Assembly: GCA_050012475.1 (NCBI GenBank)
Contig: JBEKHC010000039.1
Span: forward strand, 39,328 to 103,327
DNA length: 64,000 bases
Source: Candidatus Velthaea sp.
GTDB lineage: Bacteria > Vulcanimicrobiota > Vulcanimicrobiia > Vulcanimicrobiales > Vulcanimicrobiaceae
Direction: 5' to 3'
Shown: one piece after another, positions 471-45,132 of the stretch
Position numbering within the stretch: the first letter of the stretch is position 1
How the letters are laid out: each line of letters opens with the position of its first letter
Notes under the pieces: model-generated
Database searches by the model: none
What the model saw: only the letters and a program-made list of their open reading frames with translations
Told to the model about the DNA's origin: nothing
Translations under genes and position numbers: made by a program

Positions 471-1259
471 GTGACGAGTTCGCCCTTCGTCGAATTCGAC
501 GATCTGTCGATCGAATTCGCATCGAGTGACGGACCCGTCTTAGCGCTCGACCACGCTTCGCTGCACTTCGAGGAAGGCGCGTTCGTCTGTATCGTCGGAC
601 CCTCGGGCTGCGGCAAGACGACCTTGCTCCAAACGCTCGCGGGATTTCTCAAGCCGACAAGCGGCACCGTTCGGCTCGACGGCCGGGTCATCGACGGACC
701 CGGCGCCGACCGCGGCGTCGTCTTCCAGCAGCCGGCGCTTTTTCCGTGGATGACCGTGGCAAAAAACGCCGGTTTCGGTCTCATGGTGCGCGGCACCGCC
801 GACAGCGAACAACAAGCCGCAGTCGAATCATACCTGCGGTTCGTGGGTTTATGGGATTTTCGCAACCGTTATCCGTACGAGCTCTCCGGCGGGATGCAGC
901 AACGGCTGGCGATCGTGCGCGCACTGGTCAACGATCCCAAGGTCCTGCTCATGGACGAGCCATTCGGCGCTCTCGACGCCTTGACGCGCGAGAAAATGCA
1001 GGAAGAGCTGCACACGGTCTGGCGGCGCACGAAGAAAACGATCGTGTTCATCACGCACGGTGTCGAGGAGGCGGTCTACCTCGGCACCGAGGTCGTCGTG
1101 ATGTCGCCGCGACCCGGCCGAATCCTCGAACGCCTGCCCCTGCCGTTCGCTCGCAACGGTGAAGACCGTGACATTCGCGCCGTCAAGTCGAGTCCGGAGT
1201 TCGTCGCGCTGCGCGAACACGTGTTGTCGCTGATCTGGAAAACAGCCGACGCATTCTAA
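471..1259 (+). CDS. Nitrate/sulfonate/taurine ABC transporter ATP-binding protein (TauB-like)
   Basis: Walker A GPSGCGKT, LSGGMQQR signature, LLMDEPFGALD, GPGADRGVVFQ. Confidence 0.92.
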   Translation: MTSSPFVEFDDLSIEFASSDGPVLALDHASLHFEEGAFVCIVGPSGCGKTTLLQTLAGFLKPTSGTVRLDGRVIDGPGADRGVVFQQPALFPWMTVAKNAGFGLMVRGTADSEQQAAVESYLRFVGLWDFRNRYPYELSGGMQQRLAIVRALVNDPKVLLMDEPFGALDALTREKMQEELHTVWRRTKKTIVFITHGVEEAVYLGTEVVVMSPRPGRILERLPLPFARNGEDRDIRAVKSSPEFVALREHVLSLIWKTADAF

Positions 1260-1260
1260 G

Positions 1261-2964
1261 CTACACCCCGATCGCCATGCTTTGCATCGACTGGGCCGGC
1301 GGAAATGCCATCGCAGCGACAAAGACCTTGGTAAACCCTGGATCGGTCGCGAGCTCGATCGACTCGACCGCACGGGTTACGGCGAGCAGCGCGCCGCGGG
1401 CATCCGCGTTGACCAGCAGCGCTTCGGCGCCCGTGCGCGCGGTGTTGCCGACAAACGTGACTCTGCCTTCAAGTTGGGGCGGAAACAGACCAATGTCGAT
1501 GAGGCTGCGCGTCGTGAGGTGGTAGCCGAACGAGCCCGCGACCAGCACCCGGTCCAGATCCGCAGGCACGAGTCCGTTATGTGCGAGCATCGTATCGATG
1601 CCGGCCCGGACGGCTGCTTTTGCCAGTTGCACTTGCCGGATATCGCCTTGGCTGAGATACACGTCGCCGGACAAATGAAAAACCGTTTTTCCGTCGCGCG
1701 GGCGCAAGCGATCGCGTAACGCCGGCGACAGCTGCGTCACCTTGCGCGTGAACCGCCCCGAGCTTTCGACGACGCCGGTAACGACCATCGCGGCGAGCGC
1801 TTCGATCAAGCCGCTGCCGCAAATCCCGACGGCATCCGCACCGTCGATGGTCGCCACCCGGATGTCGTCGCCGTCGACTGCAACGCGTTCCACGGCGCCG
1901 CGCGCGGCACGCATACCGCAGGCGATGTTCATGCCCTCAAAGGCCGGCCCCGCAGCGGTCGATGTCGCTTGCAGCCGGCCGTCGCGCGCCAATACCATCT
2001 CGCCGTTGGTGCCGATGTCGACGAATAGCGTCACGCCGCCGGCGTTCGGCAGATCGGTCGAGAGCACGCCGGCGGCGATATCCGCGCCCACGAATCCCGA
2101 AATAAGGGGTGGAAAATAGATCTCGGCGCACGCGGCGACACGCAAACCCAGGGACCCGGCGGCGCGCGACTCATCGCCCGCGAGCGCCGGCGTGTACGGA
2201 AAACGTCCGAGCGGTTCGGGGCTGACGTTGGCGGCAAGGTGCATCATGCACGTATTTCCGGCAACGACCACTTCGTAGATGCGCCGGCGCGGAATGCGGG
2301 CTTCCGCGGCGAGCAATCCGATCATGCGGTCGATCTCGGCCATCAGCTCGTCGTGCAACAGCGCCAAACCGTCCGCTTGCGATGCAATCTGCACGCGCGA
2401 CAATACGTCCTGGGCGTGGGCGACCTGTGGATTGAGCGCGGCAACGGAACCGACGCGCGCTCCAGTCCCCAGATCGAGTAAAGAGGCAACGAGCGTCGTC
2501 GTTCCGATGTCGACTGCGACCCCGTAGAGGCGGGTCGTCGTGTCGCCGTTTTCTTCGGCCAGCTGCCGTTCACCCGAACTCACAATGGTGCACCGGCGCT
2601 CGTCATCGTAGCTTTTTCGAATGGCCGGGCGCACCGGCAGATCCAGCCGAAGACCGTCTTCGAGGATTCGCAGGCCGCGCTCGCCCGAACCCGGCAAGGT
2701 AACGTCCAGATCCCCCTCGACGAGCGTACTGCACAAGAGCACGCCGCCTTCCGCGACTTGCTCGCTCGAAAGCCCGCGGGTCGAAACGATGCGCGCTCGC
2801 GTCTGCCCTACCGCGTCCAGACGCACGCGGCACTTGCCGCAGGTGCCGACGCCGTTGCACGGTGCTTCCAAGCGGACGCGAGCCAGTCGCGCGGCGTCGA
2901 GCAGCGAGCTGCCGACGGGAACCTCCGCGCTCGCACCGGTGGGGAGAAACGTGACGATCGGCAT
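1261..2964 (-). CDS. ASKHA-domain [2Fe-2S] corrinoid reductive activator (RACo/RamA-like)
   Basis: N-terminal CNGVGTCGKC...LLC ferredoxin motif; VDIGTTT, VDIGTNGE, AAGPAFEG, GICGSG, QLAKAA motifs. Confidence 0.9.
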   Translation of the reverse strand: MPIVTFLPTGASAEVPVGSSLLDAARLARVRLEAPCNGVGTCGKCRVRLDAVGQTRARIVSTRGLSSEQVAEGGVLLCSTLVEGDLDVTLPGSGERGLRILEDGLRLDLPVRPAIRKSYDDERRCTIVSSGERQLAEENGDTTTRLYGVAVDIGTTTLVASLLDLGTGARVGSVAALNPQVAHAQDVLSRVQIASQADGLALLHDELMAEIDRMIGLLAAEARIPRRRIYEVVVAGNTCMMHLAANVSPEPLGRFPYTPALAGDESRAAGSLGLRVAACAEIYFPPLISGFVGADIAAGVLSTDLPNAGGVTLFVDIGTNGEMVLARDGRLQATSTAAGPAFEGMNIACGMRAARGAVERVAVDGDDIRVATIDGADAVGICGSGLIEALAAMVVTGVVESSGRFTRKVTQLSPALRDRLRPRDGKTVFHLSGDVYLSQGDIRQVQLAKAAVRAGIDTMLAHNGLVPADLDRVLVAGSFGYHLTTRSLIDIGLFPPQLEGRVTFVGNTARTGAEALLVNADARGALLAVTRAVESIELATDPGFTKVFVAAMAFPPAQSMQSMAIGV

Positions 2965-2967
2965 TGG

Positions 2968-4002
2968 TCAGGCCCGGTGCCCGGTCTTCACCGCGCCGGT
3001 CAGGGCTCGAATATTGTCGAGACCCGTCGATGTGCTGAGTCCGCAGGCCGGGGCGATAATGTCGACACCATCATGCACGAGCCGCTCGGCGCTGCGCTGG
3101 ACCTTGTTCGCGTCAGCGAATTCCAGCAGCGCGGTACTGAGGTTTCCCATCGTCGTGATTTGCGGATAGTCTGCTTTGAGCCGCACCAGGCTGACTTTCG
3201 CGTCGACGCTGATCGCATCGGCGTGCAGATCGGCGAGGTAGTGGCGACTGCGGCTCATATCACCGCAAATATGAACGATGACGGGCTTGCCCGCCGCATG
3301 CACCGCATCGCACAGCAGGTTGAGGTAACGCACCGCAAACGAGCTGAAAATCGCCGGCCCCAAGATCTCGCCGGTCGCCGTAGGATCGCCGATCGCGATC
3401 ACGTCGGCGCCGTTGCGAGCAACTTCCTGCGCGTAAGCGACGAGCAGCCGGGTGATGTAATCGAGCACGCGATGCGCGTCGCGCGGTTTGGTGCGCAATT
3501 CCTTGAGAAAGCTGAGCGGGTCGACGACCGAAGCAGCCGTGCTGATCGGCCCGGAAAGCGTCGCAATCACCGGCACGTCGGGGTTGCGCGTTTTGAGCTG
3601 ATAAGCGGCTTGAATGACCGTCCCGATGCGCCCGCTGCGCACGAGTTGCTCAACGTCGTGAATCTCCACGTCGCTCGACGAAGCATAGGCCTCCGCCGCG
3701 ATTTTCGGCTCGCACGAAAGCGAGCCCGAGTCGATGCGGCTGCCGAGCACCTCCGGCTCGACGGTCATGCAGAACGGAACCCCGAGATTTTCGAATCCCG
3801 TCTTCGCGCGCACGCGTTCGGCAAGTTTGGTCATGCTCTCCGATGAGTAGTGCGCTTGCGGCAGTTTGGGCGAGTCATCCTCGTCCATCACGCCGACGAC
3901 CGCCGCGTTGAGCATGCCACCGGTGCAGATGACGGGAGGCCGGTCGACTTGCTCGTTGGCGAGCACGCGCACCAGGCGTTCGCGCGGAGCAAGCTCAAGC
4001 AC
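2968..4002 (-). CDS. MtaA/CmuA-family (URO-D fold) methylcobamide:thiol methyltransferase
   Basis: VDRPPVIC, VPFCMTVE, Zn motif IVHICG and C-terminal APACG. Confidence 0.88.
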   Translation of the reverse strand: MLELAPRERLVRVLANEQVDRPPVICTGGMLNAAVVGVMDEDDSPKLPQAHYSSESMTKLAERVRAKTGFENLGVPFCMTVEPEVLGSRIDSGSLSCEPKIAAEAYASSSDVEIHDVEQLVRSGRIGTVIQAAYQLKTRNPDVPVIATLSGPISTAASVVDPLSFLKELRTKPRDAHRVLDYITRLLVAYAQEVARNGADVIAIGDPTATGEILGPAIFSSFAVRYLNLLCDAVHAAGKPVIVHICGDMSRSRHYLADLHADAISVDAKVSLVRLKADYPQITTMGNLSTALLEFADANKVQRSAERLVHDGVDIIAPACGLSTSTGLDNIRALTGAVKTGHRA

Positions 4003-5059
4003 GAGCGGTTCTCTCCGGCGCGAAAACCGCCGGCAGACCGGTCACGGCAGCGGTCAGTGCGGCGATGTTGGCCAGGCTGGTGGCGCTTGCCAAACCGCAA
4101 GCCGGCGAGACAACGTCGACGCCGCCGCGCACAAGACGGGCACCGACGTTTGCAATTTGGCCAGGCTCTCCCTGATGCAACAGAAACGTGCTGACGTTGC
4201 CTACCACGGCCAACTGCGGAAAGGCTTGGGCGAAGTACTGCAGCGACACCGCGGCATCGGGAATGAAACCATCGCAGCGCAACGTGCGAAGCTGCGCATC
4301 GACGCGGTCGAGGTGACCGCACATGTGCACGAGCACGCGCGCCCCGGTCTGCGCAACCGCGTCGATGAGCCGCTGCAAATGCGGCAGAACGCTGCGCTCG
4401 AAGACCGCCGGACCGGCGAGTGCGGGAGTGACCGTATCTTCGTGAATGACGATGACGTCGGCACCGGCCGCGACCAGCTCGCGCGCAAAACCGATCTCGA
4501 AGTCCGTGACGTGCTCGACGAGCGAGCGCACATCATCGGGACTTTTGCGCAGCTCGCGAAAGAACGCATCCGGGCGCACGGCCGCAGCCGCGACGCTGAC
4601 GGGCCCGATTAGATTCCCGATGATCGGTAAATCTTCCGCGGTCTCGGTCAACCGGCGCACCGCCGCCACCGAGATCCCGATGCGCCCGCGCTGCAAACGC
4701 TCGTCCACGGGGACGCGCGGCACGTCCGCACACCGCTCGTAGGGTTCGCGCACGACCCGTGCTTCCGTGGCCTCGTCACCGAGATCGACGATCGCGCCGA
4801 ATGCTTCCGCCTCGACCGTCGTGCAGAGCGGAACCCCGACCGATTCGAACCCGGTGAGACGCGCAGCCGCCAGCGCCAGACCGGCCATCGCCGCCGCGTC
4901 CGAATGCGCGTCGGGCAACCGGTAGCCCGAACGAATCACGACTTCCGCCGGGACGCCGCTCATGCTGCCGCCGCTGCAAATGACCGGGGGACGATCGACG
5001 GGGAGGCGCGCGAGCGCCTGCAGCAAACGGGCGCGACGATCCAATGCGGCGCTCACCAT
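3995..5059 (-). CDS. MtaA/CmuA-family methyltransferase paralog 2
   Basis: VDRPPVIC, VPLCTTVEAE, LVHMCG, SPACG; start moved to ATG 5059, just after the upstream gene's stop. Confidence 0.85.
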   Translation of the reverse strand: MVSAALDRRARLLQALARLPVDRPPVICSGGSMSGVPAEVVIRSGYRLPDAHSDAAAMAGLALAAARLTGFESVGVPLCTTVEAEAFGAIVDLGDEATEARVVREPYERCADVPRVPVDERLQRGRIGISVAAVRRLTETAEDLPIIGNLIGPVSVAAAAVRPDAFFRELRKSPDDVRSLVEHVTDFEIGFARELVAAGADVIVIHEDTVTPALAGPAVFERSVLPHLQRLIDAVAQTGARVLVHMCGHLDRVDAQLRTLRCDGFIPDAAVSLQYFAQAFPQLAVVGNVSTFLLHQGEPGQIANVGARLVRGGVDVVSPACGLASATSLANIAALTAAVTGLPAVFAPERTARA

Positions 5060-5064
5060 TGCAA

Positions 5065-6147
5065 CTAATAGTGCCCGTAGAGCCGGGCGGCCTTGACCAT
5101 GGTCGCGGCGCTGAGCAGGTTGCCGTTGGGCGGAAACTCGCAGCCGCTCGAGAGGATGAACCCGCCCTCGGCAACGCGGAAGGTTTCGATTTGCTGACGG
5201 CATTCTTCGAGCAGATCCGCTTGGCTGAACTCGTGACCGGCCTTCGCGGGGTCGATGACGCCGATGGTCACGACCTTCTTCCCCCAGTTCTGCGCGTGCG
5301 CCGTGAGGTCGGCCGAGCCGTAGGCCGGATACGCGTGCGAGATCGCAATCGGTTCGATGTGCTCGATTACCGCGTCGAAATACACGCCGTTACCGCAATT
5401 GTGCACGATCACGGGTACGCCGGCGGCGCGAACTGCGTCAGCGATCGGATGCATGAACACGCCCTCGAAATCGACCCAGGTCTGTTTCTTGAGAATCGAC
5501 GCCGAGGAATACAGCGGATCGAGGACGATGGCGTGCGCTCCCGCCTCCACTTGGGCGACAGCGTACTCGACGAGCACGCCGGTAATCGTGTTCACCGCTT
5601 CGAGCACGCGATCGGGATGGCGGATCAAATCTTTAAACAATTCGGCATGACCGCGAATCTGCGACAACACGCCCAACGGGCCATACACGAAACCCATCAC
5701 CGCGACGTCCTTGCCGCGCGCTTCAGCGAGACCGCGCACGATCTCGATGACGCCGCTGGTGCGGCGCGATTTGCGCGGATCGAAAGCGCGCACTTTCCCG
5801 TACTCCTGCGCCGTTGCAATAAACGGATTGTCGAAGTTCGGGAGCGCCGTGCTCCAATCGGGGAAGAGCACTTCTTGGCCGAAGTCTTCGGCTTCGACCG
5901 ACAGGTCGACCAGGGTGAGCCAGCCGTCGAACCCGATCAGTTCTTGCGCCGCGAGCAGGCTGGCCGTCGCGGCCTTCGCATCCTGCGACCAGCGGCCGTA
6001 CGAGATGCCCAAGACGCGGCCCGAGGCGCCGCAGACGAGCGGCGCCGCCGGTACCCGGTCGGGCTTTTTGTATTGCAGCGCCAGTCCGACCCGTTCGAGC
6101 GACGTCAGTTGGTCGCGCTGGGCCGTGGCGGTTCCGTTGGTGCTCAT
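5065..6147 (-). CDS. URO-D-fold methyltransferase paralog 3
   Basis: KPDRVP, DLSVEAEDFG, IVHNCG, GGFILSSGCE. Confidence 0.85.
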   Translation of the reverse strand: MSTNGTATAQRDQLTSLERVGLALQYKKPDRVPAAPLVCGASGRVLGISYGRWSQDAKAATASLLAAQELIGFDGWLTLVDLSVEAEDFGQEVLFPDWSTALPNFDNPFIATAQEYGKVRAFDPRKSRRTSGVIEIVRGLAEARGKDVAVMGFVYGPLGVLSQIRGHAELFKDLIRHPDRVLEAVNTITGVLVEYAVAQVEAGAHAIVLDPLYSSASILKKQTWVDFEGVFMHPIADAVRAAGVPVIVHNCGNGVYFDAVIEHIEPIAISHAYPAYGSADLTAHAQNWGKKVVTIGVIDPAKAGHEFSQADLLEECRQQIETFRVAEGGFILSSGCEFPPNGNLLSAATMVKAARLYGHY

Positions 6148-6806
6148 GCCGCGTGCACGACTTCAGTCAGGCGTTTTGCCAGTTGCACGGCGAGCGTCGC
6201 CTTCGCCGCGTAGCCGTCGGCTCCGATGCGGTCGGCGAATTGCTGCGAGAGCGGAGCGCCGCCGACGATCACTTTGAAGCGCTCGCGGATGTCCTCGGCT
6301 CGGAGTATTCGGACGACTTGCGCCATCTGATCCATCGTCGTCGTCATGAGCGTCGAAAGTGCGATCACGTCGGCATTCACTTCCAACGCGCGATCGACGA
6401 ACGTTCGGGCCGGCACGTCGCGGCCCAGATCGAAGACCTCGAAACCGGCAACTTCGAGCATGATCCGCACCAAATTCTTGCCGATGTCGTGCGTGTCGCC
6501 GGCAACCACGCCGATGACGACCCGGCGACCGCGCACGGACGATTCCTGACGAATATGGGGCTGCAGGATCGCGAGGCCGGCATACATCGCATCGGCCGCA
6601 ATCAAGAGTTCGGGAACGAAGTACTCCTCTTCGTCAAAGAGTTTTCCCGCCGCATTCATGCCGGCAATCAACCCATGTTCGACCGCCGCCCAAGCGTCGA
6701 GGCCCTGCGTGACTACCTCCTGCGACAGCTCGGCCGTCAACGGCTCGTCAAGCTCGAGAACCGCGTTGGCTAGAGCGGCATGCAGCTCATCAGGATCTTC
6801 GGACAT
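6144..6806 (-). CDS. Corrinoid (B12-binding) protein, MtaC/MtbC-like
   Basis: B12 motif GDTHDIGKNLV, LSTLMTTT, VGGAP; N-terminal cap EYFVPELL. Confidence 0.92.
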   Translation of the reverse strand: MSEDPDELHAALANAVLELDEPLTAELSQEVVTQGLDAWAAVEHGLIAGMNAAGKLFDEEEYFVPELLIAADAMYAGLAILQPHIRQESSVRGRRVVIGVVAGDTHDIGKNLVRIMLEVAGFEVFDLGRDVPARTFVDRALEVNADVIALSTLMTTTMDQMAQVVRILRAEDIRERFKVIVGGAPLSQQFADRIGADGYAAKATLAVQLAKRLTEVVHAA

Positions 6807-6853
6807 AACATCTCCTTCTGTCGAAAGCGGCGCGTCCGGACGGCCGCGCAGAG

Positions 6854-7099
6854 TCAGTCATCATCGAGCTGCGCGACACCATTCACGAGCTCGATCCTTT
6901 CGTGGCTGCAGGCACCGGCGCACGCCCCGCATCCCGCACAGCGTCCGCTATCGATACTGATGCCTTCGTCGACGCGCGTAACCGCGTCGTTGAAACACAC
7001 TTCCGTGCAAGGCGCTTCACAAACGCGACAGACCCCGTCGGACGGTCCGCGATCCGAAGCTGGTTGACCCACACCCGATGACGCCACGAAGATCGACAT
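6854..7099 (-). CDS. 4Fe-4S dicluster ferredoxin
   Basis: CRVCEAPCTEVC and CAGCGACAGAC motifs; first gene of the corrinoid unit. Confidence 0.8.
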   Translation of the reverse strand: MSIFVASSGVGQPASDRGPSDGVCRVCEAPCTEVCFNDAVTRVDEGISIDSGRCAGCGACAGACSHERIELVNGVAQLDDD

Positions 7100-7269
7100 T
7101 CAACAAGCGGTCTTTCTGATCGAGAGAACCGGCGCTCAGATGGTCGAGCATCGCGTCGAGCGCTTTTAAGTCAGTACCGACATCGACGTTCAAGCCGGCG
7201 ATTCGACCGCGTAGGCCGTGCCCGCTGGTCCGGTACCTTCGAGCCACACCGCAATGTCGCGTTTGGAAG

Positions 7270-7446
7270 AAAAATGACGAAGCCCCTCACCGAACCGGCG
7301 AAGGGCTTCTTCGCAGAATAGCGCGGTGCGCTAACCCGCGGTGAAACTCACCGGCCCATTCGAAGGGGCCGGGTACACCACTGCGCTAACGCACGAGAGA
7401 GAAGCATTGCTTAATGATAGTAGCTGTTTGACGGTTCATGTGTCAA
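7270..7446 (-). promoter_or_regulatory. Putative attenuator L1: promoter, leader MLLSRALAQWCTRPLRMGR (7407-7348), terminator 7309-7279
   Basis: TTGACA-18-TACTAT, ATG 9 nt later; single TGT followed by hairpin CCGGCCCC..GGGCCGG whose 3' side (CCGGTGAG) can alternatively pair with the terminator arm TTCGCCGG. Confidence 0.62.
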
Positions 7447-7721
7447 GCAGATGAATGCAGTTCTCAAACACATGTGCTAAAGCAATTGCTATGCTTTATT
7501 GGAATTAAATCGTTTGCTCCGCATGTTGCCGGTTTGCTCGCTGCGCGCTTTCGACAGGGATGCCGCGCTGCAACGAGCATTCGACGCTAACTTAGGGTCA
7601 ACTATAATTTAACGTAGGGCCGACAAAATGCAAAATGCCGGCACCCATTATGCAATCGCTGCTTAACTACTTCACGACGGAAGCGAACTTCCGGACGCGA
7701 CGTACGAGCAGCTCCGCCTCT

Positions 7722-8381
7722 TCACTTCGCGCGATGATCGATTTGCTGCGTGACCCGATCGCCGCCGGCCTGAACCGCGCACACGAACGCGATCAGCACC
7801 AGGACGACGGCGATCATCACGGTCGTCTCAAAGCGCTGATACCCGTAGCGGATCGCGAGGTCGCCCAAACCGCCCGCGCCCACCGCACCCGCAACGGCCG
7901 ACTCGCCGATGAGCGAGATCAACGTCACCGTAAAGCCCGCCGACAGCCCGGGGAGCGCCTCGGGAACGAGCACTTCCCAGACGATCGTGGCGCGGTTCGC
8001 TCCCATCGCGCGCGCCGCTTCGATCAGGCCTCCGTCGACTTCGCGCAGCGAGACTTCGGCGATGCGGGCAAAGTATGGGATCGCCGCGATCGACAGCGGG
8101 ACGATCGCCGCCAACGTGCCGATCGACGTGCCCGCGATCAGCCGCGTAAACGGAATGAGCGCAACCATCAAGATGATGAACGGGACCGAACGAAACGAAT
8201 TGACGACCGCGCCAAGGATCCGGTTGACCGTCGGTTGTTCGACGATTCCGCCGCGATCGGTGCATACCAGAACGAGGCCGATCGGCAACCCGATAAGGAG
8301 TGCGATAAGGCCCGAAGCGCCGACCATCAGCAGCGTTTCGAGCAGGGCCTCAACCGTGAGGTTAACGATCTGAGTTGAGAT
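7722..8381 (-). CDS. metI: Methionine ABC transporter permease
   Basis: RSVPFIILMV, GAVGAGGLGDLAIRYGYQRF. The expected start at 8381 reads ATC behind GGAGGT; the next in-frame ATG is 8327. Confidence 0.88.
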   Translation of the reverse strand: MSTQIVNLTVEALLETLLMVGASGLIALLIGLPIGLVLVCTDRGGIVEQPTVNRILGAVVNSFRSVPFIILMVALIPFTRLIAGTSIGTLAAIVPLSIAAIPYFARIAEVSLREVDGGLIEAARAMGANRATIVWEVLVPEALPGLSAGFTVTLISLIGESAVAGAVGAGGLGDLAIRYGYQRFETTVMIAVVLVLIAFVCAVQAGGDRVTQQIDHRAK

Positions 8382-13892: not shown

Positions 13893-14020
13893 AAGTCCCG
13901 TTTCAAGCGTCCTGATGAAGATCATTGACCAGTCGTGTACGCTAGGCTCCCGTTGCGCGGCGCCTCAACGTTTGTGCATTTGCTGAAATCGCCGGGCACG
14001 AGCGTTCCAGGGCAGTGCGT

Positions 14021-14100
14021 TATCCGCTATATTGGACAAGCGGGAGGTTAAAGCGGAACCGAGCCCTTCTTCATCACCCAAAATTCCGTTGTAGTGGACA
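14021..14100. promoter_or_regulatory. Pair of imperfect palindromes TCC-N8-GGACA (14021-14038, 14083-14100), candidate operators
   Basis: TATCCGCTATATTGGACA and ATTCCGTTGTAGTGGACA, 62 bp apart, upstream of the Met-rich gene. Confidence 0.45.
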
Positions 14101-14234
14101 GGATGGTATCGATGTCCCATTTGTAGCATTGTCTGCCCCTTACAAGCGCGTTACGATTGAATCACCAGCACGGCCAAGGTTGATGGTCGAGCAAACGAGA
14201 CTATCGCTTTCCACAGCAAAAGGATGCTAAAACG

Positions 14235-14651
14235 ATGATGCCCGCGATGCAGATGCCGACGAACGGAATGATGAACCCCATGATGAGCATGCCGATGAAC
14301 CCAATGATGAGCATGCCGATGAACCCGATGATGAACCCCATGATGATGAACGGCATGATGGGCATGCCGATGAATCCGATGATGATGAACATGATGGGCA
14401 TGCCGATGAATCCCATGATGATGAACGGCATGATGGGCATGCCAATGCCAATGCCGATGATGATGTGTACAATGACCTGCGAGATGACGCCCGAAGGCAT
14501 GGTCTGTACCATGAAGCCGATGGACGGCATGTCGATGGATATGATGAAAGACTGTTGCGAACGCATGAACGCAGCAATGTCGATGGGAATGCCCGCGATG
14601 ATGATGTGTTCCAATATGCCCATGATGATGTGCATGCCCGCGAAGAAATAG
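14235..14651 (+). CDS. Extremely methionine-rich protein (62 Met + 7 Cys in 138 aa), putative sulfur-storage protein
   Basis: AAAAGGA RBS, repeats of MPMNPMM, Cys-containing C-terminal half, followed by a terminator. Confidence 0.8.
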   Translation: MMPAMQMPTNGMMNPMMSMPMNPMMSMPMNPMMNPMMMNGMMGMPMNPMMMNMMGMPMNPMMMNGMMGMPMPMPMMMCTMTCEMTPEGMVCTMKPMDGMSMDMMKDCCERMNAAMSMGMPAMMMCSNMPMMMCMPAKK

Positions 14652-14678
14652 CTGCCCGACGCACCTGGCGGCTTTTTT
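14651..14678 (+). terminator. Intrinsic terminator after the Met-rich gene
   Basis: GCTGCC-loop-GGCGGC followed by T6. Confidence 0.6.
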
Positions 14679-14775
14679 ATCCGAAAACAGGGGCGCTTCG
14701 ATCAGGCCGACGTTTCGATGACGCTGCGGAACGTCGGCCTCGAAGTGAATTGCATTCCCGCTTCAAACAAGCGCG

Positions 14776-14950
14776 ATGGGGGTGGGTCTCACCGATAACT
14801 ACGTTGCTGGATTCGTAACGCCGCCGTTGTTCCATCGTCGTCGATCACTTCGGCTTCGCTCTCGCCTGGCGTTTACTCGCACTCTTATTGACCGGCGCGG
14901 CGCTGATCGTGCTGTTCGGCGGCGACCATGTTCGACGAGGAATATCGTGA
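14776..14950 (+). pseudogene. Frameshifted C-terminal fragment of an MFS-like transporter
   Basis: MGVGLTDNYVAGFVTPPLF, then a frameshift to VVDHFGFALAWRLLALLLTGAALIVLFG, resembling the last two MFS helices. Confidence 0.45.
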
Positions 14951-15037
14951 AGGCCCAAGGCCCTCACTTTTGCGCAGCGCCCGACCGAGTTCATTTGCCA
15001 GCACAATGCCATGGCTCAGCCGTGCACAAAAGGTTTT

Positions 15038-15613
15038 CTATCCGATCGGGTCGACGTATGTCATTACCAAAAACATGAGCGCTTCGATTTGGCCGACATT
15101 TCGATAATGATGGGGAACGTCGGCATCGAAGAGAATCGCATCGCCGACTTCGAGAACGTGGAGTTGCGCCTCGACCGCAATTTCCACAGTTCCCTTGCTG
15201 ACCACTAAGTTCTCGACGGTTCCCGTCGCATGGGCTTCGGCTTTTTCCAGACCCTTCGAACTCAGGCGCAATTCGTAGAATTCGACTCTGCGTTGACTAT
15301 CGAAAGGGAACAACGCTCGCGACGTAAACTCCCGCGAACTCGATATCAGGACTTTCGAGTCGGCTGCTTTTAATACCGTGGGACCGTGGCTGTGCGGTCC
15401 GCCGGTGAGGGCAGATAGCGGAATCTCCAGCGCTCTTGCGACTTTCCAAAGCAGGTTGATCGTCGGAGCACTGCGTCCCAGTTCAATTTGGCCGAGCATC
15501 GCCCGGCTGACGCCGGAGATTTGCGCGAGACGCTCGAGCGAGTATCCGCGGCGGGATCGCAGCAGCCGCAAATTATGGCCGACGACTGCCGAAAGATCCT
15601 CTTCATCGGCCAA
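15038..15613 (-). CDS. XRE-family HTH + cupin transcriptional regulator (SutR-like architecture)
   Basis: SLERLAQISGVSRAMLGQIELGRSAPTINLLWKVA HTH; GDAILFDADVPHHYRN cupin. Confidence 0.9.
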   Translation of the reverse strand: MADEEDLSAVVGHNLRLLRSRRGYSLERLAQISGVSRAMLGQIELGRSAPTINLLWKVARALEIPLSALTGGPHSHGPTVLKAADSKVLISSSREFTSRALFPFDSQRRVEFYELRLSSKGLEKAEAHATGTVENLVVSKGTVEIAVEAQLHVLEVGDAILFDADVPHHYRNVGQIEALMFLVMTYVDPIG

Positions 15614-15625
15614 CGTGACGACTAA

Positions 15626-15793
15626 CTAAAAGGGCCGATTGAACGCGAACGCGTACGGCAGCGGCATCCAGACATAGCACCACATGACCGGCATGACGGC
15701 TGTGCGCGGCTGAGCTGCGGCAAGCTTCGCTTCTTCCCGGCGGCGCCGATATGCTTCGAGGTCGTGAACCACTGCCAGGGTGGCGGATGCCAT
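15626..15793 (-). CDS. Small hypothetical protein (55 aa)
   Basis: GGAGAG RBS before ATG 15793; lies between attenuator L4 and the regulator. Confidence 0.5.
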   Translation of the reverse strand: MASATLAVVHDLEAYRRRREEAKLAAAQPRTAVMPVMWCYVWMPLPYAFAFNRPF

Positions 15794-26112: not shown

Positions 26113-26501
26113 AGGGCTCCTATCAAGTGAGAATGATGCTTCAAGTTTAAGCGAGACAACAGAGCAGACCGAAAAGACTTAAGTCGGACCGTAAACGAAG
26201 CGACGGGCATCGTTGGTGACGGACTGTTTGCACGCAGCGACCGGTTGTTCTGCAGATCAAGTCGAACGCAAAGTCGCGGTAAGCAGTTAAACAGTCGATG
26301 ACGCGAAGCGACGAGAGCTACGATCCTTCACAGAATAGAGGTCCAGATTTCGCACGCGGCTCATCCGCGCCTCCGTTCCAAACGGAAGCACCAGACGACA
26401 ACCGCGAGCAGCACCTTACGTCATCGAAAACGACTCTGCGTGCTTCGAACCTGCGATCTTTCAATCAACGCCTGCAAAGTGTCGATCGCTTGAAGAACAT
26501 G

Positions 26502-26573
26502 AGGCCACGGCGAGAATCGAACCCGCTCATTGCGGTTTTGCGGACCGCCGCCTTCCCACTTGGCTACGTGGCC
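26502..26573 (-). tRNA. tRNA-Cys (GCA), atypical C at position 33
   Basis: Acceptor GGCCACG/CGTGGCC, U73 discriminator, D arm GCC..GGC, anticodon stem GCGGT/ACCGC with loop CCGCAAA, T loop TTCGATT; CCA not encoded. Confidence 0.88.
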
Positions 26574-42023: not shown

Positions 42024-42953
42024 ATGGCCGACCCTGCGACCCCTGCAAGAGCCCTAGGCGACGACGCCGCCAGGCAACTCGCAAATGCCACCAAGACCGT
42101 TCCGCAATACGACATCATCACGCCGCGGTGGCTCGTGCGCTGTCTGCAGTGGGTGCCGGTCGAGGCGGGCGTTTTCCGGCTGAACCGGGTCAAGGACGCG
42201 AGCAGCGTCGCCGTCGACTGCGCCGATCGCGACGAGCGCGATCTGCCCGAAACGTACGTCAATTACGAAGAAAACCCGCGCGAGTATTTGCTGTGCGCGG
42301 TGACGACCGTCGTCGACGTTCACACACGCGTCTCCGACCTCTACAGCGTTCCCCACAACCAGATCGCGCAGCAGCTCCGCCTGGCCATCGAGACCATCAA
42401 GGAACGCCAAGAGAGCGAACTCATCAATAACGCCGAGTACGGGCTGTTGAGCAGCGCGACGCCGGCGCAAAAGCTCTCGACGCTTGGCGGCGCCCCCACC
42501 CCCGACGACCTCGACTCCCTTATCGCGAAAGTCTGGAAAGAGCCGGGCTTCTTCCTCGCTCATCCCTCCGCGATTGCGGCGTTCGGCCGCGAATGCACGC
42601 GCCGCGGCGTCCCGCCCGCCACCATCAACCTGTTCGGCTCGCCGTTCATCACCTGGCGCGGCATCCCGCTCATCCCGTCGGATAAAGTGAAGGTCGTCGA
42701 CGGCAAGACCAACATCTTGCTGATGCGTACCGGCGATGCGCGTCAGGGCGTCGTCGGCCTCTACCAGCCGAATCTCCCCGGCGAACAGAGCATGGGTCTT
42801 GCGGTGCGCTTCATGGGCATCGATCGCAAGGGCATCGCGTCGTATCTAATCTCGCTGTATTGCGCGCTCGCGGTACTAACGGACGACGCCCTCGGTGTTC
42901 TCGAGAACGTCGACGTGACGAAGTTCCCTGTGTACACGCATACCTATGCCTGA
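42024..42953 (+). CDS. Family 2A encapsulin shell protein (SrpI / major membrane protein I-like)
   Basis: ARQLANATKT, ITPRWL, YEENPREY, VHTRVSDLYS, ERQESELINN, PTPDDLD, ECTRRGVPP. Confidence 0.92.
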   Translation: MADPATPARALGDDAARQLANATKTVPQYDIITPRWLVRCLQWVPVEAGVFRLNRVKDASSVAVDCADRDERDLPETYVNYEENPREYLLCAVTTVVDVHTRVSDLYSVPHNQIAQQLRLAIETIKERQESELINNAEYGLLSSATPAQKLSTLGGAPTPDDLDSLIAKVWKEPGFFLAHPSAIAAFGRECTRRGVPPATINLFGSPFITWRGIPLIPSDKVKVVDGKTNILLMRTGDARQGVVGLYQPNLPGEQSMGLAVRFMGIDRKGIASYLISLYCALAVLTDDALGVLENVDVTKFPVYTHTYA

Positions 42954-45132
42954 TCTGCCGGATCCGCAATCGCTGGGCGCGCCCGGCGAAGACCTCATCG
43001 GTCGCATGGCCAACGCGATGTTTCGGGCCGCGACGCAAAGCGTCGCGTGGCCCGGCGGCCTTCCGAGCGGAACCGGCACGCCGCTGGGCGGCTTCGGCGC
43101 GGCCCTGCCGTCGACACCGCTGCCGGACGCGTTTGCGCCGACGATCACCGCTCCGAGCGCCGTCCCGGCCGGCACGATTCCGCCAGGCACGATTCCGCCG
43201 GATATTGCAACGGCTGCGCCGCCGCCGCTCGCGGCGCCGAGCGTTTCCGGCTTCGATGCCGCTCCAAGCGGAACGCCCGGCATAGCGCTGGGCGGTTTCG
43301 GCGCACCGCTGCCTTCGACGCCGCTTCCCGACGCTGCCGCGCCGGGCGCGGTTCCCGGCGATTCTGCCTTCAATCCGGTCGGCATCTCGAATCCCGTCGA
43401 ATCGAAGCCCGCGCCGGAGTCCGCAGCGCTACCGCCCCACGGTGGGGTCACGCCCGACGGTTTCTCCGGCGCTCCGGCAACCGCGCCGCGCGGCGGCTTC
43501 GGTGCTCCGCTGCCTGGCCACGCCGCGCCTGAACGCGGAACGCCCGAGTTCAACGTGCCCGCGTTATCCGACGCGAGCCTTTTCGTTCCCGACCAAGCCA
43601 TCCCAACCGACACGCTTTCGCGGCGTGGCCAGCCCGGCACGCTGCCCGAGTCGTCGTTGCCCACGTCGTCGTTGCCCGCGTCGTCGTTGCCCGGCGCGAA
43701 AATGCCCGGCCCGTCATCGCCTAGCGTGCCGCCGCTCGGACTCGCGATTCCCGGTGAAGACGATCTTCGCGCATTGCTCGCGGCCGCGGCCATCCCGTTC
43801 GTGCAACCGACGTTGCAGGACGCCGCATCGCCGCACTACTATTTCCTGAAGCCGCCGGCGGAGCTCGCCGCCGCACCGGCCGCGGACGGCTTCGACGTGG
43901 ATCTCGTCCGGCACGATTTCCCGATCTTGTCCGAACGCGTCCATGGCCGGCCGCTGATCTGGTTCGACAATGCGGCCACCACGCAAAAGCCGCAAGCGGT
44001 AATCGACCGCCTGAGCTATTTCTACGAACACGAGAACTCCAACATCCATCGTGCCGCGCACGACTTGGCCGCACGTGCGACCGACGCGTACGAAAAGGCT
44101 CGCGAGACCGTGCGCCGCTTCATCAATGCTGGTTCCGCCGACGAGATCGTTTTCGTGCGCGGCACCACCGAAGCGATCAATCTGATCGCCAACACGTGGG
44201 GCCGGCGTTTCATCGGCAAGGGCGACGAGATCGTCGTCACCTGGCTCGAGCATCACGCCAACATCGTGCCGTGGCTGCTGGTGTGCGAGCAGACCGGGGC
44301 GATCCTCAAAGTCGCTCCGGTCGACGACCGCGGTCAAGTCAAACTCGATGAGTACGGGAAGCTCCTGGGGCCGCGCACCAAATTAGTGTCGTTTACCTCG
44401 GTCTCGAACGCGCTGGGGACGATCACGCCGGCCAAAGTCATGACCGATATGGCCCACGCCGCCGGCGCACGCGTGCTGCTCGACGGGGCCCAATCGGTCT
44501 CGCATATGCGCTCGGACGTTGCGGCACTCGACGTCGACTGGTTCGTGTTCTCGGGACACAAGGTCTTCGGGCCGACCGGGATCGGCGCGGTGTACGGCAA
44601 GCCCGACGTGCTCGCGGAATCACCGCCGTGGCAAGGCGGCGGCAACATGATCGAGGATGTGACGTTCGAACGGGCCCTCTACAAGGCACCGCCGAGCCGG
44701 TTCGAGGCCGGGACGGGGAACATCGCCGATGCCGTCGGTCTGGGCGCTGCGCTGGAATACGTCGAACGCGTCGGCATCGAGGCGATCGGCCGCCACGAAC
44801 ACGATCTGCTCGCGTTCGCAACGCGGTTGCTGCTCGACATACCGGGGCTGCGGATCATCGGCACGGCGGCCGAAAAGGCCGGCGTGATCTCCTTCGTCCT
44901 CGACGGGATCGACCCGGTCGAAGTGGGAACCGCGCTCAACGAAGACGGCATCGCCGTCCGGGCTGGTCACCACTGCGCGCAACCCATTCTGCGCCGCTTC
45001 GGCTTGGAAAGCACCGTGCGCGCGTCACTCGCGCTCTATAATACGCTGGCCGAAGTCGACGCATTGGCCGCGTCGGTGCGCCGGATTCAATCGAAGCGAG
45101 CACCGCATCGCGGGGCGCGCTCGGCGGTTTGA
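42946..45132 (+). CDS. Encapsulin-cargo cysteine desulfurase (SufS-like) with ~310-aa Pro/Gly-rich N-terminal extension
   Basis: DNAATTQKP, FSGHK (PLP Lys), RAGHHCAQP; overlaps the shell gene's end. Confidence 0.92.
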   Translation: MPDLPDPQSLGAPGEDLIGRMANAMFRAATQSVAWPGGLPSGTGTPLGGFGAALPSTPLPDAFAPTITAPSAVPAGTIPPGTIPPDIATAAPPPLAAPSVSGFDAAPSGTPGIALGGFGAPLPSTPLPDAAAPGAVPGDSAFNPVGISNPVESKPAPESAALPPHGGVTPDGFSGAPATAPRGGFGAPLPGHAAPERGTPEFNVPALSDASLFVPDQAIPTDTLSRRGQPGTLPESSLPTSSLPASSLPGAKMPGPSSPSVPPLGLAIPGEDDLRALLAAAAIPFVQPTLQDAASPHYYFLKPPAELAAAPAADGFDVDLVRHDFPILSERVHGRPLIWFDNAATTQKPQAVIDRLSYFYEHENSNIHRAAHDLAARATDAYEKARETVRRFINAGSADEIVFVRGTTEAINLIANTWGRRFIGKGDEIVVTWLEHHANIVPWLLVCEQTGAILKVAPVDDRGQVKLDEYGKLLGPRTKLVSFTSVSNALGTITPAKVMTDMAHAAGARVLLDGAQSVSHMRSDVAALDVDWFVFSGHKVFGPTGIGAVYGKPDVLAESPPWQGGGNMIEDVTFERALYKAPPSRFEAGTGNIADAVGLGAALEYVERVGIEAIGRHEHDLLAFATRLLLDIPGLRIIGTAAEKAGVISFVLDGIDPVEVGTALNEDGIAVRAGHHCAQPILRRFGLESTVRASLALYNTLAEVDALAASVRRIQSKRAPHRGARSAV

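Follow-up and report, generated by a model that had tools for sequence, protein, structure and literature searches.

The window, a stretch of 64,000 nucleotides from a contig of the soil bacterium Candidatus Velthaea sp., contains a short gene on the forward strand whose product is dominated by methionine. Translation reproduces the Met, Cys and His counts given in the original prediction: of the 138 residues, 62 are Met (44.9%), 20 are Pro, 12 are Asn, 9 are Gly and 7 are Cys, and there is no His. This corresponds to 69 sulfur atoms per 138 residues, and 11 of the residues (8%) are charged. When all Met-started six-frame open reading frames (ORFs) of at least 80 aa in the whole genome (15,290 ORFs) were ranked by methionine fraction, this frame came first at 0.449, the runner-up reached 0.157 and the median was 0.018. 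The two-part layout described previously is also seen, since the N-terminal half is covered by tandem repeats (periods 12-75 nt) and every one of the 7 Cys falls in the C-terminal half. The gene has a Shine-Dalgarno-like motif of its own, in line with the claimed ribosome-binding site. The claimed terminator is partly borne out: a hairpin with a T6 tract follows the stop codon, but it is absent from the list of a simple terminator scan that allowed loops of 3-8. Residues 1-92 carry neither Lys nor Arg and contain no uninterrupted hydrophobic core, so a classical signal peptide is lacking on a reading of the sequence, in agreement with the earlier claim. The features of the locus are collected in Table 1.

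Table 1. Positions in the window of the Met-rich protein gene, its candidate control elements and its partner genes.
Feature	Position	Strand	Remarks
Operator-like inverted repeat 1, ATCCGCTATATTGGACA	14022..14038	+	Conserved in loci L085 and L086
Operator-like inverted repeat 2, TTCCGTTGTAGTGGACA	14084..14100	+	Palindrome screen, pattern search
Shine-Dalgarno-like AAGGA	14220..14224	+	10 nt 5' of the ATG; sequence reading
Met-rich protein gene	14235..14651	+	138 aa + stop; frame backed by homologues
N-terminus MMPAMQMP	14235..14258	+	Conserved; family consensus M(M)NAMQMP
Low-complexity M/P/N/G repeat half	14253..14460	+	Tandem Repeats Finder, alignment, open frames of 80 loci
C-terminal Cys/Met domain	14448..14648	+	Residues 72-138; alignment, profile search, AlphaFold2, column statistics
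Terminator-like hairpin + T6	14650..14678	+	-14.6 kcal/mol, z -2.4
368-nt spacer	14666..15033		Absent from relatives; 12-nt direct repeat on its flanks
XRE-HTH + cupin regulator gene	15038..15613	-	191 aa; convergent with Met-rich gene; Pfam, orthologous group, 1y9q
Conserved small ORF	15626..15793	-	55 aa + stop; directly upstream of regulator

The Met-rich protein belongs to a family with about 200 genomic relatives in the Alpha-, Beta- and Gammaproteobacteria and the Myxococcota. Because the frame, the composition and a domain of about 65 aa are conserved in these relatives, the Met-rich feature goes beyond chance, and 14235-14651 (+) is a real gene. The relatives share a common plan in which a Met/Pro/Asn/Gly repeat half of varying length is joined to the Cys/Met domain. 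The length of the repeat half differs greatly between relatives while its composition is kept, as seen both in the alignment and in the open frames of 80 loci. The methionine content is 23-48% in all of the first 56 matches, and the alignments indicate that extreme methionine content is itself a conserved trait of the family. The Cys/Met domain is predicted to fold as hairpin-helix-hairpin (AlphaFold2 pLDDT 65.5), and the full-length protein reaches a mean pLDDT of 0.36 in its ESM Atlas model. Each domain contains four to five well-conserved Cys, an arrangement also compatible with a metal or redox site. At the Met-consensus columns of the domain, 1011 substitutions were counted, of which 459 are to Leu, Ile, Val, Phe or Ala, 382 to Thr, Ser, Gly, Gln, Asn or Pro and 7 to His. 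Such mostly aliphatic or small replacements are expected for filler or core positions and not for fixed metal ligands.

The Met-rich protein matches no Pfam family at E up to 0.01, no NCBIfam model and no PADLOC entry. A PDB sequence-profile search returned no hits at E up to 1, a Foldseek search of the PDB with the domain model gave nothing usable (best E 0.78), and the matches listed by the ESM Atlas were all clusters of hypothetical proteins. No domain fusions were found in the family, and a literature search that excluded subscription journals found no description of it. Rfam gave no riboswitch and no other element at threshold; sub-threshold matches to C/D-box snoRNA models fall on the ATGATGA repeats and were rejected as spurious. 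A leader-peptide attenuator was also rejected, because the product is 138 aa long with a conserved, predicted-folded domain, and because the gene that follows is convergent, so that none lies downstream to be controlled.

An equally open frame on the complementary strand (14201-14635, -) was overlooked by the original prediction and needed to be excluded as a rival. It would encode an Ile-rich hydrophobic protein, is open over 144 aa and lies 3' of the regulator gene in the same direction, with which it would make an ordinary operon. It shares its third codon positions with the forward frame (GC3 0.82), and for this reason GC3 and dN/dS-type arguments cannot tell the two apart; the frames were compared by codon identity, stop codons and Shine-Dalgarno motifs. 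Among AT-N codons, the forward frames of 80 loci together contain 4759 ATG and 25 ATH, which would force the antisense codon ratios to absurd values (Gly GGC 919 to GGT 5; Phe TTC 595 to TTT 7). The antisense frame is broken by internal stops in 27 of the 80 loci, and a Shine-Dalgarno-like (GGAG-type) motif precedes the conserved forward start in 64. An antisense product is therefore so improbable that we set it aside.

The Met-rich gene is accompanied by a regulator with an N-terminal HTH_3 domain (E 2.5e-12) and a C-terminal Cupin_2 domain (E 2.3e-10). A check suggested with the original prediction, linkage to XRE-cupin genes, gave a positive answer: 70 of 81 loci have the regulator next to the Met-rich gene, in most cases tail-to-tail with a median gap of 71 nt, and the pair is divergent in 6 loci. 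Three genomes of a 151-genome family sample carry the Met-rich gene, and the genomes with regulator orthologues (E < 1e-90) are those same three. Orthologues of the regulator are 45-64% identical across phyla. The earlier account of the gene missed the third conserved small gene of the unit, whose product has the N-terminal motif V-[IV]-D-[LF]-x-x-[YF]-R-x-x-[RK] and matched no family in Pfam, NCBIfam and PADLOC scans. The Met-rich protein, the XRE-cupin regulator and the ORF of about 55 aa form one conserved, patchily distributed three-gene module. The 368-nt spacer of the window contains an 84-nt stretch that resembles the regulator gene's 3' end (81% identity), and RNA-library contigs that join across the spacer exist. 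The Met-rich ORF is covered by contigs of four metatranscriptome libraries from three studies, some without a single difference, although contigs of this kind do not prove transcription, strand or level. Their coverage has gaps at 13900-14143 and within the regulator gene.

The only close solved relative of the regulator is 1y9q (E 8.7e-25 over residues 10-175, about 40% identical). Most of the cupin residues that are invariant in the regulator group are identical in this structure (H128, G131, E134, F162, D165, H168, Y170, E111, and E114). D-methionine has been reported in the cupin pocket of the 1Y9Q crystal (PMC7901475). Since 1y9q serves as a generic template for all XRE-cupins, this ligand is a lead and not a test. 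The same paper describes XRE-cupin factors as local, specialized repressors (PMC7901475). The present regulator resembles PuuR, PauR, PsdR, ErfA, and 1Y9Q in its HTH_3 and Cupin_2 domains and its adjacency to the presumed target, where palindromic, putative binding sites are present. It differs from these repressors in forming a distinct orthologous group (38.8 bits against the PuuR NCBIfam model, cut-off 211), in the upstream ORF of about 55 aa and in a presumed target that is a structural Met-rich protein and not an enzyme or transporter.

The region upstream of the Met-rich gene contains two operator-like inverted repeats. Palindrome screening with exact 5-mers yielded little, and a 4-mer screen with a control revealed them. 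When at most one mismatch is allowed, the 5.36-Mb genome has no further match to the pattern, which was derived from the two sites. The core TCC-N8-GGA is found upstream of 42 of 80 Met-rich genes, with 0.07 expected per 300 nt, and the extended form TCC-N8-GGAGGAA is found upstream of 25 of the 80, with two occurrences elsewhere in 2.4 Mb. A similar repeat precedes the small-ORF/regulator operon in myxobacterial loci. These repeats are operator-like, and we regard them as putative sites for the adjacent XRE-cupin regulator.

The window is a sulfur island by its annotated genes, which agrees with the setting proposed earlier. Homologues of its Cys/Met or sulfur genes lie within 7 kb of the Met-rich gene in 22 of 80 other loci (9 taxon labels), against a background of 3-4.5% of random positions that comes from one genome only (G000), and the loci are not phylogenetically independent; the remaining 58 have no sulfur gene within that distance. 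The methionine importer genes metI/metQ are directly upstream in three loci (L065, L046, and L056). The module adjoins a CysK-like gene, SrpI and CysE in L027 and L070, two loci from Magnetospirillum, and a cysteine desulfurase (CyD) was detected in L070. The Pseudomonas neighbors of the gene look unrelated. A role as encapsulin co-cargo, offered earlier as an alternative, is not supported, since only 2 of 80 other loci carry an encapsulin within 7 kb; the SrpI encapsulin locus of the window (42024-45132) is 27 kb away. No mobilizing protease was found linked to the Met-rich gene, though a store needs one.

The best reading of these observations, to which we assign a probability of about 0.42, is that the Met-rich protein would be a methionine-induced cytoplasmic reservoir or sink for methionine and sulfur. 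The methionine/sulfur store of the original prediction stands as the best-supported function and gains indirect support from the XRE-cupin link, the methionine in 1y9q, the Cys/Met and importer genes nearby and the lack of copper genes among the neighbor proteins scanned; storage itself we infer, as we do the ligand, the direction of control, the accumulation and the mobilization in the following scheme. Its observed starting points are the gene with its frame and family, the three-gene module, the operator-like sites and the occurrence of the gene in RNA libraries. The protein, one part of a mobile three-gene unit, would be cytoplasmic and made of a disordered (M/P/N/G)n half, free to vary in length, and a small folded Cys/Met domain. 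The regulator would occupy the TCC-N8-GGA repeats of the Met-rich promoter and keep the gene off. Free methionine or a close derivative would fill the cupin pocket, and the regulator would then leave the DNA. The cell would in this way turn surplus methionine and cysteine into a protein polymer that is osmotically inert. Once sulfur or methionine was exhausted, breakdown of this largely unfolded chain by proteases would return the amino acids.

An alternative reading, which we judge unlikely, is that of a thiophilic-metal protein in which Met thioethers (MxM, MxxM) and conserved Cys would jointly bind a soft metal such as Cu(I) or Ag(I) in the cytoplasm, to buffer or store it, and the cupin regulator would sense the metal. 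MxM/MxxM-type motifs have a role in copper binding, and the repeats here are of this type and accompany the four to five conserved Cys of each domain. A His/Glu/His metal site is common in cupin domains, and the regulators share H128, E134 and H168 without exception. Against this, the protein lacks a signal peptide, and the known Met-motif copper proteins to our knowledge act outside the cytoplasm. CopC/PcoC, CusF, PcoE/SilE, and the Ctr1 N-termini, with which it shares clustered thioethers, are extracytoplasmic, usually contain His and are encoded in cop/cus/pco/sil loci under metal sensors; none of these traits was seen in the present case. His is missing from the protein and rare among the substitutions at its Met columns, and no metal-binding family was matched in Pfam or NCBIfam. 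The original prediction had named a location of homologues in copper-resistance loci as evidence against a store, and no genes for copper, silver, mercury or methionine sulfoxide reductase (Msr) and no metal-type regulators were found among 97 neighbor proteins of 14 loci. The recurrent neighbors are methionine importers and Cys/Met enzymes.

A cytoplasmic oxidant sink, in which exposed Met is sacrificed to HOCl or peroxides and recycled by MsrA/B, is distinctly unlikely. A disordered Met-rich protein is chemically suitable for this function, and there is a precedent in the periplasmic MrpX of Azospira suillum, which is likewise small, Met-dominated, probably disordered and served by a dedicated local regulator (PMC4436054). 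MrpX has 20% Met and 44% charged residues, is exported to the periplasm with a signal peptide and is encoded in an operon with yedYZ driven by SigF/NrsF (PMC4436054), in contrast to the 45% Met, 8% charged residues and lack of a signal peptide here. The Met-rich protein further differs from MrpX in its conserved Cys domain, its XRE-cupin partner and the lack of Msr linkage, and no sequence relation between the two was found. Besides the missing msr genes, neither yedYZ (msrPQ) nor SigF/NrsF was present among the genes of the window or the 97 neighbor proteins. XRE-cupin regulators are associated with the sensing of small metabolites (PMC7901475).

It is also possible, though we give it little chance, that the Met-rich protein is a regulatory part, and that the protein or its Met-hungry translation keeps the regulator and the small protein informed of methionine or Met-tRNA supply or of redox state, for example as an anti-repressor or through convergent transcription. 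The tight three-gene unit with its short tail-to-tail gap, the conserved N-terminus of the Met-rich protein and the conserved small partner ORF would agree with such a role, and a sensing site could be built from the conserved Cys. However, the freely varying length of the repeat half would be unusual for a specific interaction surface, and the six divergent loci indicate that convergent interference is not essential.

Returning to the reading as a methionine and sulfur reservoir, a likeness in purpose is found in the delta-zeins, whose methionine content is roughly a quarter, compared with 45% in the Met-rich protein. Delta-zeins are eukaryotic, pass through the secretory pathway and are deposited in protein bodies, and the Met-rich protein has no homology to them (no Pfam match). 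The likeness is that these Met-rich plant seed storage proteins are ribosomal products proposed to bank sulfur amino acids (PMC3420316, PMC4227475). A bacterial sulfur-banking device to compare is the Family 2A (SrpI) desulfurase encapsulin, which stores elemental sulfur in its shell and for which the desulfurase is reported to be the only cargo (PMC10836720). SrpI is present in the same window and beside the module in the two Magnetospirillum loci, whereas 78 of 80 other loci have no encapsulin within 7 kb.

A literature search outside subscription journals found no bacterial protein whose purpose is the banking of amino acids, and the sulfur stores known to us are inorganic (sulfur globules, desulfurase encapsulin). 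A switchable methionine store or sink protein would be of a kind not yet described in bacteria. In a more far-reaching form, which we put forward tentatively, the family may represent the first amino-acid store in bacteria that is dedicated to this purpose and made on ribosomes. The three genes would be a "methionine bank" able to spread horizontally, in which a methionine-sensing XRE-cupin repressor, with a partner of about 55 aa, turns on a protein of 30-48% Met at methionine surplus. The protein would later be degraded to supply sulfur-starved cells, and its disordered Met-rich half may drive the formation of reversible, redox-sensitive deposits. If the storage reading is true, a natural, regulated family of soluble proteins with 30-48% Met would be a new element of the sulfur economy in sulfur-poor soils and peat. 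The regulator and its operator would offer a direct handle on how cells sense methionine surplus, and the genes would be ready-made for raising methionine in feed and food proteins, which is a long-standing aim. Even if the protein serves to buffer metals or oxidants, the module is a widespread system that lacks any annotation and includes two new protein families.

Of the 138 residues in the product of the Met-rich ORF, 62 are Met (44.9%), 20 Pro, 12 Asn, 9 Gly and 7 Cys, and His is absent; the Met, Cys and His counts are those originally read from the sequence. Among the 15,290 six-frame ORFs of 80 aa or more that begin with Met in the whole assembly of the 5.36-Mb genome carrying the window (G000), its Met fraction of 0.449 is the highest; the runner-up reaches 0.157, against a median of 0.018. 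The G+C content of the ORF is 0.51 vs 0.63 for the window because 62 of its codons are ATG, and its GC3 of 0.86 is normal for coding sequence in this genome. The first Lys/Arg is residue 93 and Pro, Asn or Gly break each hydrophobic run; we therefore read, by eye, no classical signal peptide, in agreement with the original prediction. The ribosome binding site and the repetitive N-terminal half that it described were also recovered. The proposed terminator is backed by a hairpin of -14.6 kcal/mol (z -2.4) followed by a T6 tail 3' of the stop codon, but a simple terminator scan does not list it. Sub-threshold Rfam matches to C/D-box snoRNAs (archaeal and fungal models) at 14243-14420 (+) are spurious and stem solely from the resemblance of the ATGATGA repeats to the C box. 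The two ORFs of the genome that come next in Met content, on contigs C24 (from 36935, +; 115 aa, 15.7% Met) and C126 (from 7781, -; 110 aa, 14.5%), have signal-peptide-like N-termini and are unrelated to the Met-rich family; they may encode periplasmic Met-rich proteins of the MrpX or copper type.

Features of the Met-rich gene and its surroundings (window positions, except for L085 and L086, the loci of two relatives from the same bacterial family that carry the module)
Feature	Position	Strand	Basis
Met-rich ORF, 138 codons, ATG to TAG	14235-14651	+	read from sequence
Tandem-repeat arrays, periods 12-75 nt, N-terminal half	14253-14460	+	Tandem Repeats Finder
Shine-Dalgarno-like AAGGA	10 nt 5' of ATG	+	read from sequence
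Operator-like repeat copies	14022-14038; 14084-14100	+	TCC-N8-GGA type
Antisense rival ORF, 144 aa, Ile-rich	14201-14635	-	equally open frame
XRE-HTH/cupin regulator gene	15038-15613	-	
Small ORF, 55 aa (MASATLAVVHDLEAYRRRR...MWCYVWMPLPY...), directly 5' of regulator	15626-15793	-	motif and locus comparison
Truncated RuBisCO-large-like ORF beyond regulator	L085 2837-3397; L086 2795-3355	-	28.5, 23.7 bits, below 30.1 Pfam cut-off

The reverse strand of the Met-rich ORF is also open, and the Ile-rich frame found there lies 3' of the regulator on the regulator's own strand. It shares third codon positions with the plus frame (GC3 0.82), so that GC3 and synonymous/non-synonymous tests are uninformative and the choice of frame was left to three other tests. 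Across 80 related loci (11,294 codons) the plus frame has 4759 ATG codons vs 25 ATA, ATC or ATT, and a coding minus frame would need absurd choices (Gly GGC 919 : GGT 5, Phe TTC 595 : TTT 7). Stops interrupt the central 80% of the antisense frame in 27 of the 80 loci. A GGAG-type Shine-Dalgarno motif precedes the conserved plus start M(M)NAMQMP in 64. On these tests the plus frame is the gene, and we consider it most improbable that the Ile-rich ORF is the true product.

The protein belongs to a sizeable family. Of 270 candidates that a word-indexed search drew from 5.8 billion proteins, 56 match at E <=0.01, all with 23-48% Met. A scan of one genome per species gave 457 pattern matches, 200 of which encode a Met-rich relative; the best 80 of these form our locus set, which includes Rhizobium and other Hyphomicrobiales, Magnetospirillum, Inquilinus, Pseudomonas, Xanthomonadales, a Burkholderiales MAG and many Myxococcota. 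The protein has no match in Pfam, NCBIfam, PADLOC or PDB sequences, and the ESM Atlas returns only 'hypothetical protein' clusters. Its N-terminal half is of low complexity (M/P/N/G/S/Q) and highly variable in length, with Sorangium versions many-fold longer than those of the shortest homologues; in the Atlas, the full-length protein is modelled at a mean pLDDT of 0.36. The C-terminal half is a domain of about 65 aa with the consensus MMC-K-M-T-C-E-M-T-x-D-G-M-V-C-x-M-x-P-M-D...C-C...G-M-P-M-M-M-x-C-G-G-M-P-M-M. A profile of this domain matched 71 clusters of 43-169 aa at E <=0.001 (33 at <=1e-10) among 1.84 billion cluster representatives, with no fusion to other domains among the 71; Pseudomonas and Xanthomonadales carry two copies per protein. 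The non-Met positions most strongly conserved across 105 domains (95 proteins) are P50 (0.96), G48 and P25 (0.90) and five Cys (0.70-0.88). An AlphaFold2 model from 40 sequences gives a hairpin-helix-hairpin at modest confidence (pLDDT 65.5, pTM 0.40), to be treated as a low-confidence structure, and Foldseek found no fold for it in the PDB. What the family conserves is bulk methionine on a small fold. The 1011 substitutions in Met-consensus columns comprise 459 A/V/L/I/F, 382 small polar residues and 7 His, and low-Met relatives, P0099 and P0029 among them, retain the domain with Met replaced by Leu, Val or Ala. Met is thus the general hydrophobic building block of a fold, and the family is richer in Met than this fold requires.

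When all ORFs within 7 kb of the Met-rich gene were clustered (80 loci plus the window, starts taken from the longest ORF), one neighbour dominated. It is an XRE-HTH and cupin regulator (Pfam HTH_3 and Cupin_2 in the window and in 12 of 14 sampled loci) and occurs at 70 of the 81 loci. These 70 span 25 taxon labels, assigned by hand on the basis of record titles, and are phylogenetically clustered (21 Pseudomonas, 14 Rhizobium). It mostly lies tail-to-tail with the Met-rich gene (median gap 71 nt, IQR 57-115), with exceptions upstream and divergent in six loci and more than 2.7 kb distant in four. Of the 11 loci without it, five end within 660 nt on the relevant side; in the other six, including two Sorangium and two Polyangium, the flanks are present and no homologue was found. 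The regulators form one orthologous group, with 45-64% identity to the window protein over two phyla. The linkage to XRE-cupin genes that had originally been suggested for testing is present; a conserved small ORF, overlooked originally, is probably the third part of the module. A regular expression for a relaxed motif close to its N-terminus, V-[IV]-D-[LF]-x-x-[YF]-R-x-x-[RK], finds this ORF in 55 of the 70 loci in Proteobacteria and Myxococcota, a count that depends on the expression. Its C-terminal part is lineage-specific: in Alphaproteobacteria and Myxococcota it is hydrophobic and rich in Trp, Val and Pro, and in Pseudomonas it is amphipathic. Pfam has no family for the ORF; a profile search gave 108 database proteins at E <=0.01 among 767 candidates, and every match named by its source is a 'hypothetical protein'. 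In the window, the convergent genes are separated by a 368-nt spacer (14666-15033) that is missing in relatives; in L085 and L086 the two stops are only 28 nt apart. The spacer is flanked by a 12-nt direct repeat (TTTTTTATCCGA / TTTTCTATCCGA, 361 nt apart), and over positions 16-99 it shares 81% identity with window 15067-15151, a segment within the 3' end of the regulator gene. The spacer resembles a decayed leftover of a local duplication.

An unbiased screen for 4-mer inverted repeats, controlled against the remainder of each locus, yielded TCCA-N6-TGGA, TCCG-N6-CGGA and forms akin to them. Of 80 Met-rich genes, 42 have TCC-N8-GGA in the 300 nt 5' of the gene (median position -127) vs 0.07 expected per 300 nt, and the extended TCC-N8-GGAGGAA precedes 25 of 80 and occurs only twice elsewhere in 2.4 Mb (both strands); these counts overstate independence because many loci are closely related. 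The motif recurs in Rhizobium, Inquilinus, other Alphaproteobacteria, Archangium, Cystobacter, Hyalangium and Sorangium. The two window copies are the sole matches in the genome at <=1 mismatch, which shows only the absence of further sites, the pattern having been derived from both. Repeats of the same type precede the small ORF in 19 of 55 loci, with none in the window; in myxobacterial loci two of them lie 43 and 68 nt 5' of it, which suggests autoregulation.

The only close solved relative of the regulator is the V. cholerae XRE-cupin protein 1y9q (E 8.7e-25, residues 10-175 aligned). Cupin residues invariant over 31 aligned regulators and identical in 1y9q are E111, E114, H128, G131, E134, F162, D165, H168 and Y170. 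E. coli SutR (YdcN), an Xre-family factor with a cupin domain, is reportedly titled a regulator of sulfur utilisation. According to a paper on Pseudomonas XRE-cupin factors, 1Y9Q holds D-methionine in its cupin pocket, and such factors are local, highly specialised repressors thought to quit DNA upon sensing a small molecule (PMC7901475). The bound methionine is a lead to the regulator's signal and no test of it, since 1y9q serves as the generic template for XRE-cupins as a whole.

The window forms a sulfur island, in line with the sulfur region named originally. It contains two metNIQ sets, DUF4395, a FadL-like porin, TauD with a sulfonate-type ABC system, homocysteine synthase, cysE, a cysteine synthase A gene directly upstream (NF007989, 451 bits) and the SrpI encapsulin with its cysteine desulfurase cargo (NF041166, 829 bits). 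The sole tRNA gene of the window, tRNA-Cys(GCA) at 26501-26573 (-), lies inside the island and adjoins the TauD/sulfonate ABC genes. A corrinoid methyltransferase set at 1261-6806 (-), directly adjoining a metNIQ importer, combines two URO-D/MtaA-like methyltransferases with a B12-binding protein and an activase of the RACo type that has a 2Fe-2S domain; the set may serve to demethylate methionine or a methylated sulfur compound. At least one homologue of the window's sulfur genes lies within 7 kb in 22 of the 80 other loci (9 labels; BLAST, ATPase matches ignored), vs 3-4.5% of random positions in G000, a rough control from a single genome. In L065 and two P. gingeri loci, metI and metQ lie immediately upstream in the same orientation; Rhizobium L064 and L066 have CysK-like and MetY-like genes beside the module, and CBS, cystathionine lyase and cysteine synthase are near it in Magnetospirillum (L006). 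Pseudomonas neighbours appear unrelated to sulfur. The RuBisCO-large-like ORF of L085 and L086 may be a RuBisCO-like protein of methionine salvage, a weak lead. In Magnetospirillum fulvum and M. molischianum (L027, L070; ~700-8200) a CysK-like gene, SrpI and CysE abut the regulator end of the module, with the regulator divergent from the Met-rich gene and the cysteine desulfurase gene detected in L070 only.

The unit is patchily distributed. Among 151 sampled genomes of the window's family, the Met-rich gene occurs in three, G000 and two of another genus, and regulator orthologues (E 1e-95 to 1e-121) are present in precisely these genomes. The window's own genus has three other genomes in the sample (88-94% complete), and the Met-rich gene was found in none of them. 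Four further family genomes, one flagged unpublished (G051), have only regulator paralogues (32-38% identity), and a 401-genome sample labelled 'phylum' (296 from the window's family) adds no carriers. Two Rhizobium loci are plasmid-borne. From this patchiness and the plasmid loci, the three-gene unit behaves as a mobile accessory module. The stretch also turns up in metagenome assemblies of peat and soil; 14 DNA runs contain 0.28-0.95 of its sampled words, the top run possibly being the source sample. Contigs from four metatranscriptome libraries (at most four samples, three studies) cover the Met-rich ORF. One of 173 nt equals 14161-14333 with zero differences, one of 295 nt matches 14405-14665 with two, and the remainder are relatives at 90-95% identity. 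Contigs in three libraries join 14665 to 15034, or 14678 to 15039, so these relatives have the tight tail-to-tail form of L085 and L086. Such contigs, which cannot prove transcription, strand or level, lend weak support to expression in situ.

In the literature searched, whose coverage excluded subscription journals, we found neither the Met-rich family nor the small ORF nor the module described. The nearest bacterial precedent is MrpX, the methionine-rich periplasmic peptide of Azospira suillum, and the Met-rich protein fails every defining feature of MrpX tested (PMC4436054). Copper Met-motif proteins and metallothioneins have only chemistry in common with it, and plant Met-rich seed proteins only their proposed purpose. 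The regulator belongs to the XRE-cupin kind, but in an undescribed orthologous group. Copper-resistance loci had been named as the setting that would speak against a sulfur store; among 97 neighbour proteins from 14 loci there are no copper, silver, mercury or Msr genes. This argues against soft-metal binding, which we regard as unlikely, and against a cytoplasmic oxidant sink of the MrpX kind, which is less likely again. Slightly behind these stands the reading that the protein, or else its Met-hungry translation, acts in regulation. Co-packaging in the encapsulin is not supported, with SrpI near only 2 of the 80 other loci and the desulfurase reported as sole encapsulin cargo in Acinetobacter (PMC10836720).

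We tentatively favour, at a probability of about 0.42, a methionine-controlled reservoir or sink, because the conserved bulk methionine is tied to a local regulator of the metabolite type, with a nearest structural relative that holds methionine, and because methionine-import and Cys/Met enzyme genes recur as neighbours. What the observations establish is the anatomy of the unit; its ligand, sign of control, accumulation and breakdown are inferred. In such a reservoir, the regulator would repress through the TCC-N8-GGA sites until surplus Met, or a Met derivative, relieved the repression. Met and Cys would then be banked as Met-rich protein, at 69 sulfur atoms per chain, and would be freed later by its proteolysis.
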